Positions 4,748 to 10,071 are shown, numbered from the stretch's first letter. The stretch: 45,352 nucleotides of DNA from an uncultured Gemmatimonadota bacterium (GCA_964576115.1 CAZNUA010000029.1:1-45352), one strand, 5' to 3'. The notes: a model not told the origin generated them from the letters alone. Translations and numbers: made by a program.

Positions 4748-5361
4748 ACAACAAAGGAAAACGGAACATCGGTCATTCCTCCTACGTCGACGATTTCATC
4801 CTGAAAGGTGCCAGCCTGTTCCTGGTCTGGACGGGCAGGCACTACCGCATGACAAGAGATGCGGATCTCCTGGGAATCCGCCCAGCGGATAGCGATCATC
4901 TCGCAGATATATTTAGACAGATCCTCGACGCTCCGGTCCCTCGGTTAATGGCCTATACCAGATATTCCATGGTGGCGGAGAAGCTGGAGGCCATCATTCG
5001 TCTCGGTATGGCAAACAGCCGGATGAAGGATTTCTTCGATGTGTGGGTTCTTTGCGGTTTATTCGATTTCGATGGCGAGACATTGCGCCATGCGTGTCAG
5101 GATACGTTCAATCGACGTAGAAACCGGTTGCCGGCAGAGATGCCGATCGCATTCACGTATGAATTTTTCCAAGACGAACAGAAGCGCATGCAGTGGCAGG
5201 CCTTTATACGAAAGGCAAAACCGGACAATGTATCTGAAGACTTGGAGTCGATTGTGAATGATATTTCAGGATTCTGTAAGCCCATTATCGAAGCAATACA
5301 GCGTGAGGCGTCCTTCCATCGGGTATGGTCCGATGGAGGACCGTGGAGGAAAAGCACCTAA
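4744..5361 (+). pseudogene. AbiEii/AbiGii nucleotidyltransferase toxin, apparently internally deleted (205 aa)
   Basis: GTG overlaps antitoxin stop (GTGA). Has FILKGA, TRDADLLG, VAEKLEA and NSRMKDFFD motifs but lacks the ERxLYRL helix and the central DIGFGD segment. Confidence 0.75.
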
Positions 5362-6218
5362 ATCAGCGTCGCCTCCGAAAGGGTGGCGTGCATCACCGTC
5401 ACAGCCTCGCCGCCCAGGACCACCCGGTCGCCGTCCAGGCGCACCCGCACGATCCCGCCGCGTTCGGAGACCTGATGGCCGACCAGCTCGGTCCTGCCGA
5501 GCTTTTCGGCCCAGTAGGGGGCCAGCGTGCAGTGGGCGGCGCCGGTAACCGGATCCTCGTCGATTCCCAGGGCGGGGGCGAAGAAGCGGCTGACGAAGTC
5601 GATCTCGGGATAGTTACCCTCTGCGGCATCAGCCTCGGCAGCGGCACCGGAAGCACCGCTCCCGGCTTCATCGGCTGCCGCCGTGACGATCACCCCTCCG
5701 CCGGTGATGGCCGAAAGCCAGGTGCAGTCGGGTTTGAGGTTTCGCACGGTGTCGGCCGAAGCGAGTTCGACCAGAAGGCAGCACCGGGAACGGCCGATGA
5801 ACTCGGGGGTCACCCCCTGGGCTTCGACCAGGTCGGGAGCGACTGCGGTTACGACCGCCGGATCGGCGGGGAAGTTCATCTCGATCAGCTCGCCGGCCCG
5901 GCGGGCGGTCAGCTGGCCGCTGCGGGTGTGGAAACGGGCTTCGGCATCGGGGGGGACCAGGCCCTTTTCCCAGAGCACGTGGGCGCTGGCCAGGGTGGCG
6001 TGACCGCACAGATCCACTTCGACCGTCGGGGTGAACCAGCGCAGATCGAAACCGTCCTCGCGCTCGAGCAGGAAAGCGGTCTCGGAGAGGTTCATCTCCC
6101 GGGCAAAGAGCTGCATCCATTCATCGGCGCGGGGCTCGGGCAGCAGGCAGACCGCGGCGGGATTGCCGGTGAAGGGACGGGAGGTGAAGGCGTCTACCAC
6201 GGTCAGAGAGAGAGCCAT
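5358..6218 (-). CDS. PhzF family (diaminopimelate-epimerase fold) isomerase
   Basis: VDAFTSRPFTGNPAAV, EMNLSETAF, LRWFTPTVEVDLCGHATLA, EDPVTGAAHC. Confidence 0.92.
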   Translation of the reverse strand: MALSLTVVDAFTSRPFTGNPAAVCLLPEPRADEWMQLFAREMNLSETAFLLEREDGFDLRWFTPTVEVDLCGHATLASAHVLWEKGLVPPDAEARFHTRSGQLTARRAGELIEMNFPADPAVVTAVAPDLVEAQGVTPEFIGRSRCCLLVELASADTVRNLKPDCTWLSAITGGGVIVTAAADEAGSGASGAAAEADAAEGNYPEIDFVSRFFAPALGIDEDPVTGAAHCTLAPYWAEKLGRTELVGHQVSERGGIVRVRLDGDRVVLGGEAVTVMHATLSEATLI

Positions 6219-6228
6219 GATTCTCCGC

Positions 6229-7941: not shown

Positions 7942-9645
7942 TCAGCCGTCGTCCTCGAGCGAGGAAGTGTCGCCGATCGGTTCGCCCCATTCCTGGGCTC
8001 GCAGGAGCCGCCGCATGATCTTACCGCTCCGCGTCTTGGGAAGCGAGTCCACGAATTCGATCTCCTGCGGCATGGCCAGGGGGCTGAGCCGCTTGCGGAT
8101 GAAGTTCATGATCTCGAGATCGAGATCCTTGCTCGGCTCGAAGCCGGGTTTGAGCGTCACGAAGGCCTTGACGACTTCCATGTTGACCGGGTCGGGCTTG
8201 CCCACCGCGGCCGACTCGGCCACCGCTTCGTGCTCGAGCAGGGCAGATTCGATCTCGAAGGGTCCAACCAGGTGACCGCCGGTGTTGATCACATCGTCGT
8301 CCCGGCCCTGGAACCAGTAATAGCCGTCGGCGTCGATGCTGGACCGATCGCCGCAGATGTACCAGCCGTTCCTGAACTTGCTGTCATAAATGGCCGGATT
8401 CTTCCAGTAGGAGCGGAACATCGAGGGCCAACCGGGTTTGAGAGCGATGATCCCGACCGAACCGGGCTCAGTAACCGGTTCCCATGTCTCGGGATCGAGG
8501 ACCGTAGCCTCGATGCCGGGGAAGGGTTTGCCCATCGAACCGGGCTTGATCTCCATACCGGGGTAGTTGGTGATGACCATGCAGCCGGTTTCGGTCTGCC
8601 AGTAGGTGTCGTGGAAAGGCAGGCCGTAGGCTTCACGCGACCAGTGTACGGCCTCGGCATTGAGCGGCTCTCCTACACTGCAGAGATGACGCAGAGAACT
8701 CAGGTCGAAGTTCTGAACGACCTCGATCCCCTCCTTCATGAGCAGGCGGATGGCGGTCGGGGCCGAGTACCAGACCGTGACCTTGTACTTCTCGATGAAG
8801 CGGTACCAGCGTTCGGTGTTGAAACCGGAGTCGAGCACGGCCTGGGTGATGCCGTTGGCCCAGGGGCCGATGATGCCGTAAGAGGTGCCGGTGACCCAGC
8901 CCGGGTCGGCGTTGCACCAGTAGATGTCGTCCTCACGCAGATCGAGGACCCACCTGGCGGTCAGGTACTGTGAGATGAGCGAGTAATGCACGTGCTGGGC
9001 GCCCTTGGGCTGCCCTGTTGTTCCCGAGGTGTAGTGCAGCACCGAGGGGGTTTCGGCGGTCGAAGGGTAGACCTCGAACTCTTCGACCCTTTCGAGCGAG
9101 TCGAGATCGAAGACCTGCTCGCGTTCGCGCAGTTTGTCCTCGTCGCCGTCCACGATCAGGATGTGGCGCAGGGCGGGGAGCTTGTCGCGGATCTTGCGCA
9201 CCTTGGCGACGTGTTTCTTCTGGGTGAAGATGACCGCCGTCTCGGCGTTCTCAACCCGCTGGAACAGACTCTCCTCGCCGAAGGCGCTGAAGAGTGGCTG
9301 GGCCACGGCGCCCATTTTGAGAATGCCGAGAAAACCGAGATAGAGTTCGGGAACCCGGTCGAGGAAAAGACAGACCCGCTCACCCGGCTCCACGCCCAGA
9401 TCCTGCAGGTACTTCGCGATGGTGTTGGTCAATAGGCGCAGATCGTCGAAGGTGTAGCTCCGCTCGACTCCCTGGGCGTTCTCCCACAGAAAGGCGGTCT
9501 TGTCGGCCTTGCCCCGCTCGCAGATGCGATCAGTGCAATACCAGCCGATGTTGAGAGGATCGCCCTCGGTGTATCCGAGTTCGGCCTCAGACAGTGACCA
9601 GTCGAACGATTCCTGTCGCTCGTCGTACGAGCCGATGTTGGACAT
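7942..9645 (-). CDS. acsA: Acetate-CoA ligase-like AMP-forming enzyme (Bacillus AcsA type)
   Basis: 567 aa; YTSGTTGQPKG, DPGWVTG, SVGEPLN, DTYWQTETG, GRDDDVINTGGH, LPKTRSGKIMRR. Confidence 0.85.
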   Translation of the reverse strand: MSNIGSYDERQESFDWSLSEAELGYTEGDPLNIGWYCTDRICERGKADKTAFLWENAQGVERSYTFDDLRLLTNTIAKYLQDLGVEPGERVCLFLDRVPELYLGFLGILKMGAVAQPLFSAFGEESLFQRVENAETAVIFTQKKHVAKVRKIRDKLPALRHILIVDGDEDKLREREQVFDLDSLERVEEFEVYPSTAETPSVLHYTSGTTGQPKGAQHVHYSLISQYLTARWVLDLREDDIYWCNADPGWVTGTSYGIIGPWANGITQAVLDSGFNTERWYRFIEKYKVTVWYSAPTAIRLLMKEGIEVVQNFDLSSLRHLCSVGEPLNAEAVHWSREAYGLPFHDTYWQTETGCMVITNYPGMEIKPGSMGKPFPGIEATVLDPETWEPVTEPGSVGIIALKPGWPSMFRSYWKNPAIYDSKFRNGWYICGDRSSIDADGYYWFQGRDDDVINTGGHLVGPFEIESALLEHEAVAESAAVGKPDPVNMEVVKAFVTLKPGFEPSKDLDLEIMNFIRKRLSPLAMPQEIEFVDSLPKTRSGKIMRRLLRAQEWGEPIGDTSSLEDDG

Positions 9646-9693
9646 GCTGCTTTCTCCTTTGGTCGCCTCAGCGATTCTCTCTTGCTTTCACTC

Positions 9694-10071
9694 TCACGCT
9701 TCCGTGATGACCACGGCCATGGTGGCCGTGTCGGTTCCCGAGAACGAGACCATGATCCGTTCGACACCGAGTTCGGTCGCCAGTGCCCGCATCCGGCCGG
9801 TGAGGTTCACGCGCGCGCCACCACCGGGGTCGATCTCGATTTCCATCTCGGACCAGTGCACCCCGCTCTCGGGGATCTGCCCCAGAGCCTTGATGAGCGC
9901 TTCCTTGGCCGCGAACCGGGCGGCGTAGTGACGGGCCGGATGGCGCTGTTTCTCGCACCAGGCCCGCTCGGCCGGGGTGAAGACGTCGTCCCGGAACCCG
10001 CCTCCTTCACGGGCCAGTTCCCGCTCCATCCGGGACACGTCCAGAATGTCACAGCCAACGCCGAGAACCAT
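9694..10071 (-). CDS. acpS: Holo-ACP synthase (phosphopantetheinyl transferase)
   Basis: MVLGVGCDILDVSR, FTPAER, YAARFAAKEALIKALG, IMVSFSGT; ATG 10071 preferred over 10092. Confidence 0.88.
   Translation of the reverse strand: MVLGVGCDILDVSRMERELAREGGGFRDDVFTPAERAWCEKQRHPARHYAARFAAKEALIKALGQIPESGVHWSEMEIEIDPGGGARVNLTGRMRALATELGVERIMVSFSGTDTATMAVVITEA

Follow-up and report, generated by a model that had tools for sequence, protein, structure and literature searches.

A gene unit that joins an acetate-type ligase and a Kbl paralog to a dedicated carrier protein: a possible carrier-bound branch of acetate and glycine metabolism in Gemmatimonadota and other phyla

A stretch of 45,352 nucleotides from an uncultured Gemmatimonadota bacterium (GCA_964576115.1, CAZNUA010000029.1:1-45352; hereafter the window) carries a cassette of four genes (Table 1) encoding an AcpS-type phosphopantetheinyl transferase (PPTase), an adenylate-forming ligase of the acetyl-CoA synthetase (Acs) type, a small acyl carrier protein (ACP), plus a paralog of the glycine C-acetyltransferase Kbl, a pyridoxal phosphate (PLP)-dependent alpha-oxoamine synthase. 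The conserved unit consists of these four genes only, acpS, ligase, acp and kbl. We give an even chance to the reading, drawn from the sequences, that the cassette maintains a private acetyl-ACP which is loaded by the acetate ligase and used by the Kbl paralog together with glycine. An earlier note on this DNA had proposed that the PPTase, the ligase, the ACP and the Kbl-like enzyme act as one functional unit, and the retention of their order across many phyla bears this out.

An alignment of the ACP was searched against one genome per species, yielding at least 600 matching stretches and at least 589 confirmed species loci; neighbourhood counts expressed below as fractions of 80 refer to the best 80 of these at least 589 ACP-centred loci. 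In this survey, which the earlier note had suggested, acpS, ligase, acp and kbl were found co-directional and in this order at 69 of the 80 loci, the remainder comprising five loci without an adjacent acpS, one without the ligase and five cut by contig ends. Such recurrence among loci retrieved with the ACP alone places the gene order far beyond chance. Counted pair by pair, kbl adjoins the ACP gene in all 79 loci with DNA there, the ligase gene adjoins it in 78 of 79, and acpS lies directly upstream of the ligase gene in 70 of 75 loci whose sequence covers this position. The record labels of these best 80 loci span Fibrobacteraceae, Gemmatimonadota, several classes of Acidobacteriota, Calditrichaeota, Zixibacteria, Latescibacterota, Eisenbacteria, Krumholzibacteriia, Ignavibacteria, Planctomycetota, Polyangia, Armatimonadota, Chrysiogenales and Aminicenantes, and their whole genes encode proteins 68-82% (ligase) and 71-87% (Kbl) identical to those of the window. 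No other conserved neighbour was common to the flanks of 20 diverse loci (94 open reading frames, ORFs). The collection holds 10 Gemmatimonadota genomes, five of which, including that of the window (G000), match the ACP.

The cassette kbl of L138, which belongs to a genome labelled Chrysiogenales (G018), is broken into two frames that overlap; at this locus approximately 2.2 kb separate the ligase gene from the ACP gene, and an ordinary Kbl is encoded approximately 4.4 kb away. At L057, on an Eisenbacteria chromosome (G023), the ligase matches only residues 56-285 and its gene may be disrupted; acpS, acp and kbl are intact there.

The Kbl paralog exceeds the cut-offs of the glycine C-acetyltransferase models (TIGR01822, 581.4 bits vs 493; NF005394, 574.8 vs 460) and scores 461.5 bits against E. 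coli Kbl (1fc4). It stays below the cut-offs for the other oxoamine synthases, i.e. BioF (358 vs 426), 5-aminolevulinate synthase (268.7 vs 338.55), CqsA (198.4 vs 428) and three models of serine palmitoyltransferase (SPT; 317, 267 and 222 bits vs 640, 500 and 670). The usual pairing of kbl with tdh is absent for this enzyme, there being no tdh in the window, and the genome's tdh lies beside another kbl: in G000 (144 contigs, 93.7% complete), contig C30 encodes a Tdh (NF003808, 426 bits vs cut-off 380) that adjoins a second Kbl, of the TIGR01825 type and 43% identical to that of the window. A housekeeping AcpS, 42% identical to the cassette AcpS over 88 amino acids, adjoins a YjeF-type gene on contig C2, and an Sfp-type PPTase is likewise encoded in the genome. 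Given this separate tdh-kbl pair and the second AcpS, the Kbl and AcpS of the window are extra copies, in support of the contrast that the earlier note drew with canonical, Tdh-partnered Kbl.

Within the wider family the cassette enzyme stands apart. The phylogeny that had been proposed for the Kbl-like enzyme placed all 77 rows lying directly after an ACP in one separate clade (SH-aLRT 100) of a tree of 102 Kbl/BioF-like rows; the cassette group in this tree was labelled by an identity of at least 68%, and all rows so labelled are the ACP-adjacent ones. Exactly one cassette-type Kbl is present in each of 30 genomes (split in two pieces in one of them), with 71-82% identity to that of the window, the next paralog reaching at most 63%; as an ortholog group, the cassette Kbl is thus separate from the ordinary paralogs with which it shares a genome. 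Across nine genomes with both types, cassette Kbl pairs have a median identity of 78% vs 63% for ordinary TIGR01822-type pairs, the cassette value being the higher in 35/36 pairs, which reflects either stronger constraint or lateral spread of the cassette.

According to the available part of PMC9814548, the cavity of C. necator Kbl is formed by N52, V81, H138, H215, L274, F275 and R370, to which S187 and K246 are added. The equivalents in the window, obtained via the E. coli alignment, are N57, V86, H143, H218, L277, F278, R373, S190 and K249, the last being the PLP lysine, and none of these nine cavity and catalytic residues varies in an alignment of 49 sequences from inside and outside the cassette. 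The cassette enzymes carry a signature of their own, with V142 where the others have an invariant Asn before the catalytic His, together with C269, A273, S330 and Y338; compared with ordinary Kbl, only they have a 13-residue C-terminal extension and a short N-terminal insert.

The ligase passes the acetate--CoA ligase model NF003313 (770.6 bits vs cut-off 729) and lies below the cut-off of TIGR02188 (499 vs 725); its best solved relative is a 572-residue acetyl-CoA synthetase (9g79, 582 bits). Among the genomes to which the loci led, the cassette ligases share 68-77% identity with that of the window, against at most 45% for the next paralog; like the Kbl, the cassette ligase forms an ortholog group distinct from the ordinary paralogs that occur alongside it. 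As described in the accessible portion of PMC10455477, Trp414 of the enzyme AcsSe sets the acyl range and limits Acs to acetate, medium-chain enzymes having Gly instead, and R584 binds the 3'-phosphate of CoA. The aligned Trp (W349) and the catalytic Lys (K542, equivalent to AcsSe K609) are present in all 72 distinct cassette ligases. Equally invariant (72/72) are the residues aligned to AcsSe V310, T311 and V386, which we take to be residues of the acetate pocket.

Metagenome sequences separate ligases with a neighbouring carrier from those without. This set comprises 80 loci found with a relative of the ligase of 49% identity, six of them without room for an adjacent ACP gene. Where an ACP is adjacent (15/15 loci) the ligase is 61-79% identical to that of the window, and in the 59 loci with room but no ACP it is 45-54% identical, except for one partial match at 61%. 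The ligase differs from 51 ACP-less relatives at 21 positions. Two of its basic residues, K144 and R150, are additional to those of such relatives and fall where the R191/R194 loop of AcsSe aligns, and it carries Gln527 where they have Arg or Lys. The first Trp of a WW motif is replaced by Phe or Tyr in the 72 genome-derived cassette ligases. Metagenome contigs L157-L160 represent a more distant cassette lineage, with ligase and Kbl 66-68% and 69-71% identical to those of the window, an adjacent ACP and the WW motif kept.

For the carrier itself, Pfam returned nothing at E <= 0.001. The highest-scoring NCBIfam model, NF052616 (ACP_for_OlsHI), reached 67 bits, under the cut-off of 130, and DltC and ACP models match weakly. 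Forty-five columns are invariant among 20 sequences; the invariant Asp38-Ser39 is the likely phosphopantetheine site, a stretch at the N-terminus is acidic, and the helix that follows the serine contains Lys/Arg. At least 7999 homologs were obtained at E <= 0.001, the 120 best being 73-100% identical, and in the Protein Atlas the ACP led to no clusters but those of other carrier proteins. The cassette AcpS was recognized by PF01648 (61.4 bits vs 25) and TIGR00516 (62.1 vs 59.8); the family models align from Met8 of the open frame and its likely start is the ATG at 10071, which gives a protein of 125 amino acids (9694..10071).

From the gene linkage we infer that the carrier replaces CoA in both enzymes. 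The location of the ACP gene between those of the ligase and the Kbl, together with a PPTase of its own in the cassette, counts in favour of the carrier as thiol partner, as do the signature positions that both enzymes possess. A complex of the Kbl dimer with the ACP was predicted with a score of 0.47 vs 0.01 for the best of three controls, with a verdict of weak support; of 157 solved complexes 116 attain the mark applied, as do 2 of 215 mismatched pairs, and the passing scores of 0.60 or less belong to only 18 of those 157 solved complexes and to both of these mismatches. Agreement between the runs extends to at least 84% of contacts, with a partner pLDDT of at least 83.

Links to threonine metabolism were found at a minority of loci. 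A Tdh-like gene (approximately 373 bits with TIGR00692, below its cut-off of 458) lies directly upstream of acpS at 3/80 loci, two from Zixibacteria and one from Ignavibacteria, and an ordinary Kbl (approximately 652 bits with TIGR01822) is encoded beside the cassette at L030 and L034, so that both Kbl types coexist there in one operon-like stretch. The order at L030/L133 (Zixibacteria) is tdh-like gene, acpS, ligase, acp, cassette kbl and ordinary kbl, and a thiamine pyrophosphate (TPP) riboswitch lies approximately 5 kb upstream, ahead of thiamine genes. Twelve loci with ordinary Kbl paralogs (27 ORFs scanned) held neither a short-chain dehydrogenase- nor a Zn-type Tdh beside the paralog; at three Fibrobacter-type loci, a class II aldolase-family gene sits beside it.

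Two other roles were considered for the cassette and rejected. A supply of aminopropanol for cobamide synthesis was discarded, CbiB being found in none of 35 cassette genomes, and so was a substitute for threonine synthase, with ThrC-like genes in 30 of the 35, 19 of them above cut-off and one in the window. The threonine synthase-like gene of the window (21023-22813, minus strand; Thr_synth_N and PALP domains; TIGR00260, 221 bits vs 167) lies 11 kb from the cassette.

In the mechanism that we propose, the cassette AcpS would attach phosphopantetheine to Ser39 of the 83-residue carrier, and the Acs-type ligase would adenylate acetate and hand the acetyl group to the carrier rather than to CoA, as an acetate:holo-ACP ligase. 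The Kbl paralog would then act as an acetyl-ACP:glycine C-acetyltransferase (acetyl-ACP + glycine <-> 2-amino-3-oxobutanoate + holo-ACP), with 2-amino-3-oxobutanoate being reduced to threonine by Tdh or decaying to aminoacetone, and the private carrier would keep a highly charged acetyl pool apart from acetyl-CoA. We somewhat favour the condensing direction, since the carrier is firmly coupled to a loader that spends ATP, and no other conserved consumer of acetyl-ACP lies beside it. The invariance of the acetate-pocket residues of the ligase and of the Kbl cavity residues points to acetate and glycine as substrates rather than to a lipid or an autoinducer, and the short acyl group and glycine of the earlier proposal fit these residues. 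More tentatively, and with rather less than even confidence, the cassette may represent a CoA-independent, carrier-bound branch of two-carbon, glycine and threonine metabolism in hundreds of species of more than 10 phyla, in which acetyl-ACP drives the formation of 2-amino-3-oxobutanoate (or aminoacetone) and, in the present lineage, the PhzF-family protein may process the product. The namesake of the PhzF family makes an aminoketone that self-condenses.

Several observations weigh against a private acetyl-ACP. Both enzymes pass the curated cut-offs of CoA-using families and may therefore still use CoA; the Arg equivalent to AcsSe R584 (R517) is invariant in the cassette ligases, and the score of the predicted Kbl-ACP complex is a weak one. 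G000 has no match at E <= 1e-60 other than the cassette ligase, for which reason it may have to serve there as ordinary Acs too. Three conserved Arg of AcsSe (R191, R526 and R584) are linked with binding of CoA and with the thioester step. Among them the only clear loss is at the R526 site, where 72/72 cassette ligases have Leu (the R191 site is variable and poorly aligned); this Leu was rejected as a mark of ACP use, the same Leu occurring in 21 of 80 cluster representatives and in 45 ACP-less metagenome ligases. A Zn-type Tdh, the only type surveyed, scores above cut-off in 16 of 35 cassette genomes. At L071 the ACP and kbl genes occur with neither ligase nor acpS nearby, and in the related genome G004 the ligase has been lost while acpS, acp and kbl are kept; no protein of G004 matched the ligase at E <= 1e-60, and NF003313 gave only a 241-bit hit elsewhere in that genome. 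Behind acpS in G004 a short piece of the ligase frame is still recognizable, and the loss therefore looks like a recent deletion or an assembly fault.

The pathway could also run in the opposite direction, with Tdh oxidizing threonine, Kbl cleaving 2-amino-3-oxobutanoate with holo-ACP to glycine and acetyl-ACP, and a reversed ligase (acetyl-ACP + AMP + PPi -> acetate + ATP) or another unloader completing a catabolic, energy-conserving route. This would fit the Tdh-like gene that leads the operon, and the ordinary Kbl beside the cassette at L030 and L034; however, the Tdh linkage is confined to the three loci described above, and fewer than half of the cassette genomes have a Zn-type Tdh above cut-off. 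Acetylating acetaldehyde dehydrogenase-like genes near the cassette in G004 and G008 could consume an acetyl thioester, but the flanks of 20 loci contained no conserved unloading enzyme. AMP-forming ligases normally run towards the thioester, the reverse being rare, which also counts against this direction. The ordinary Kbl reaction does run towards cleavage, as stated in the available text of PMC9814548, and on balance we regard a catabolic cassette as rather unlikely. A second possibility, which appears distinctly unlikely, is that Acs and Kbl are ordinary CoA-dependent enzymes, the ACP and AcpS serving regulation, scaffolding or an unrelated acyl transfer. It draws on scores above the equivalog cut-offs for acetate--CoA ligase and glycine C-acetyltransferase, on the invariant CoA-phosphate Arg and on the lack of another Acs match in G000. 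Against it stand the ACP gene between both enzymes in 78/79 loci and the dedicated PPTase in 70/75, as well as the separate ordinary Kbl and long-type Acs-like paralogs that many genomes also hold; moreover, the cassette enzymes form clades of their own and evolve at a slower pace than their ordinary counterparts, and the predicted Kbl-ACP complex outscores its controls, if only as weak support.

The remaining alternatives concern the substrates. That the carrier is used with other small molecules, propionate or glycolate replacing acetate and alanine or serine replacing glycine to give a different aminoketone, seems quite improbable to us: the residues in which the cassette Kbl differs beside its active site (V142, C269, A273, S330 and Y338) and the Phe or Tyr at the first Trp of the ligase WW motif would allow it, but the nine cavity and catalytic residues of Kbl and the acetate-limiting Trp are invariant, and the more distant cassette lineage keeps WW. 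Least credible of all is a pathway to a long-chain amino-lipid, a sphingoid base or a CAI-1/LAI-1-type signal. Its appeal lies in the architecture, since a ligase, a private ACP and an oxoamine synthase likewise make up the AasR-AcpR-SPT system described in the accessible part of PMC9386255; yet the Kbl paralog falls below the cut-offs of the SPT and CqsA models, the ligase retains the Trp that medium-chain enzymes replace by Gly, and the neighbourhood lacks any conserved lipid gene, such as one for a reductase or a ceramide synthase (20 loci). Acetyl-ACP formation followed by condensation with glycine remains the reading that we prefer.

The minus strand carries the four cassette genes and, after kbl, a PhzF-family gene as five co-directional ORFs; recomputed from the ORF calls in the window, the spacers of 48, 87, 126 and 10 bp are identical to those given in the earlier note, and its statement that fab, polyketide synthase and tdh genes are absent holds for the 33 window ORFs scanned against Pfam. 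That note had also drawn the PhzF-fold enzyme and the upstream major facilitator superfamily (MFS) transporter into the pathway, as product isomerase and exporter, and here the survey speaks against it. A PhzF gene follows kbl at 1/80 loci, which belongs to a relative of the same order and another family (G007), the kbl-PhzF spacer being 10 bp in G000 and approximately 6 bp in G007. Among the five cassette-bearing Gemmatimonadota genomes, only these two related ones have the PhzF ortholog, in both cases after kbl; it was not found in G002 (82% complete) or G004 (89%), and G008 (95%) has a homolog of 39% identity elsewhere. PhzF is a lineage-specific neighbour outside the conserved cassette. 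The MFS gene is co-directional, as had been noted, but split over two frames, and it adjoins acpS only here and in a relative of the same family, G002 (1/80 loci). Residues 2-252 of the first frame and 127-245 of the second match the two ends of an intact ORF of 403 amino acids in G002, and the gene in the window is either a pseudogene or an assembly error.

Aldehyde dehydrogenase-like genes occur around the cassette in other Gemmatimonadota. The gene just upstream of acpS in G004 (L099, 2297-4530) resembles acetylating acetaldehyde dehydrogenase; it scores 564 bits against the ALDH half of NF010378 and, with TIGR02518 (cut-off 620), 462 bits. G008 has a 70%-identical copy (L100, 4754-6253, minus strand) which is convergent and 0.7 kb downstream of the cassette, and a copy in G000 stands alone on the 1.8-kb contig C136. 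The idea that this enzyme is a designed replacement for the ligase in G004 was weakened by the ligase frame remnant after acpS.

Table 1. Genes of the cassette and its immediate neighbours in the window.
Feature	Position	Strand	Details
Cassette AcpS-type phosphopantetheinyl transferase	9694-10092 open frame (TTG at 10092)	-	PF01648, TIGR00516
Acs-type adenylate-forming ligase	7942-9645	-	567 aa; NF003313
ACP, dedicated carrier protein	7603-7854	-	83 aa
Kbl paralog, PLP-dependent alpha-oxoamine synthase	6229-7476	-	415 aa; TIGR01822
PhzF-family protein	5358-6218	-	286 aa; PF02567, 209.8 bits; 10 bp downstream of kbl
MFS transporter gene, two reading frames	10259..11721	-	upstream of acpS; PF07690 in ORFs 10585-11721 and 10259-11008

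No Rfam family was detected at gathering score in the window, so far as riboswitches and RNA leaders are concerned, and none of nine loci had an Rfam element beside the cassette, the sole TPP element (L030) lying 5 kb upstream. A scan for promoters and terminators gave counts no better than those in shuffled sequence. Downstream of the PhzF gene, a convergent AbiEi/AbiEii type IV toxin-antitoxin pair (4133-5361, plus strand) shares a few bases with the end of that gene; of the 238 profile positions, the AbiEii ORF covers only 129-235, in the C-terminal part. The GC content is 0.56 over 2-6 kb vs approximately 0.63 elsewhere in the window. Five paralogous MacB/FtsX-type duplicated permeases are also encoded (1406-3820, minus; 12233-14962, 14981-17650 and 17741-20410, plus; 38840-41179, minus), three of them in tandem and the last adjoining a PadR regulator gene. 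The three that were scanned with NCBIfam (1406-3820, 12233-14962 and 14981-17650) match TIGR03434, 'ADOP family duplicated permease', with 716-777 bits.

In annotation, a carrier-bound branch of this kind would be concealed by the names 'acetyl-CoA synthetase' and 'glycine C-acetyltransferase'. Our literature search found no paper linking Kbl or Acs to a carrier protein and none on the cassette, and the term 'acyl carrier' does not occur in the available portion of PMC11334938. If the proposed function is correct, two textbook enzymes of acetate and of threonine/glycine metabolism would have a widespread sister system in which a dedicated protein carrier stands in for CoA, and thousands of genes labelled Acs or Kbl would have to be reread when the metabolism of bacteria from soil, sediment and gut is reconstructed, among them Acidobacteriota, Gemmatimonadota, Fibrobacterota and Zixibacteria. 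It would also raise the question of what cells make or protect with a separate acetyl pool.

Each of the two enzymes has a well-known counterpart. Like the Kbl of the Tdh-Kbl pair (E. coli 1fc4; C. necator 7bxp), the cassette Kbl passes TIGR01822 and keeps all cavity and catalytic residues, and a Tdh-like gene accompanies it at three of the 80 loci; it differs in forming a separate clade, in being tied to an ACP rather than to tdh, and in coexisting with an ordinary Kbl in many genomes. The ligase resembles AMP-forming acetyl-CoA synthetases (9g79; S. enterica Acs, 2p2f) in passing NF003313 and in keeping the acetate pocket as well as the catalytic Lys and the Arg equivalent to R584, whereas it belongs to a distinct ortholog group that is always beside an ACP and has Leu at the R526 site, a feature not unique to it. 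Acetate:HS-ACP ligases of citrate lyase and malonate decarboxylase (CitC and MadH) likewise acetylate a dedicated carrier thiol with acetate and ATP; they are of an unrelated protein family, serve a carrier with a different prosthetic group and have no associated oxoamine synthase.

The closest characterized logic is that of AasR-AcpR-SPT from Caulobacter, Sphingomonas and E. coli B, in which, according to the accessible part of PMC9386255, the private ACP is the only acceptor that the ligase acylates, and acyl-ACP is the substrate preferred by the synthase; in the authors' view, a carrier of this private kind keeps the acyl group out of the pool of CoA. The cassette shares with it the joint encoding of an Acs-superfamily ligase, a private carrier and an alpha-oxoamine synthase. 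The Caulobacter sphingolipid comparison made in the earlier note thus holds for the logic and fails for membership, the Kbl paralog scoring below the SPT, CqsA and BioF cut-offs and the ligase keeping the acetate-limiting Trp. In the cassette, the ligase is an acetate-type Acs and not a fatty-acid enzyme, the synthase is a Kbl and not an SPT, an AcpS of its own is included and no lipid genes accompany it; Lys/Arg follow the serine of its ACP, where AcpR, as far as the available text of PMC9386255 describes it, has acidic helix II residues. Should the proposed acetyl-ACP chemistry prove right, the private-ACP principle of bacterial sphingolipid initiation would extend down to the C2 unit.

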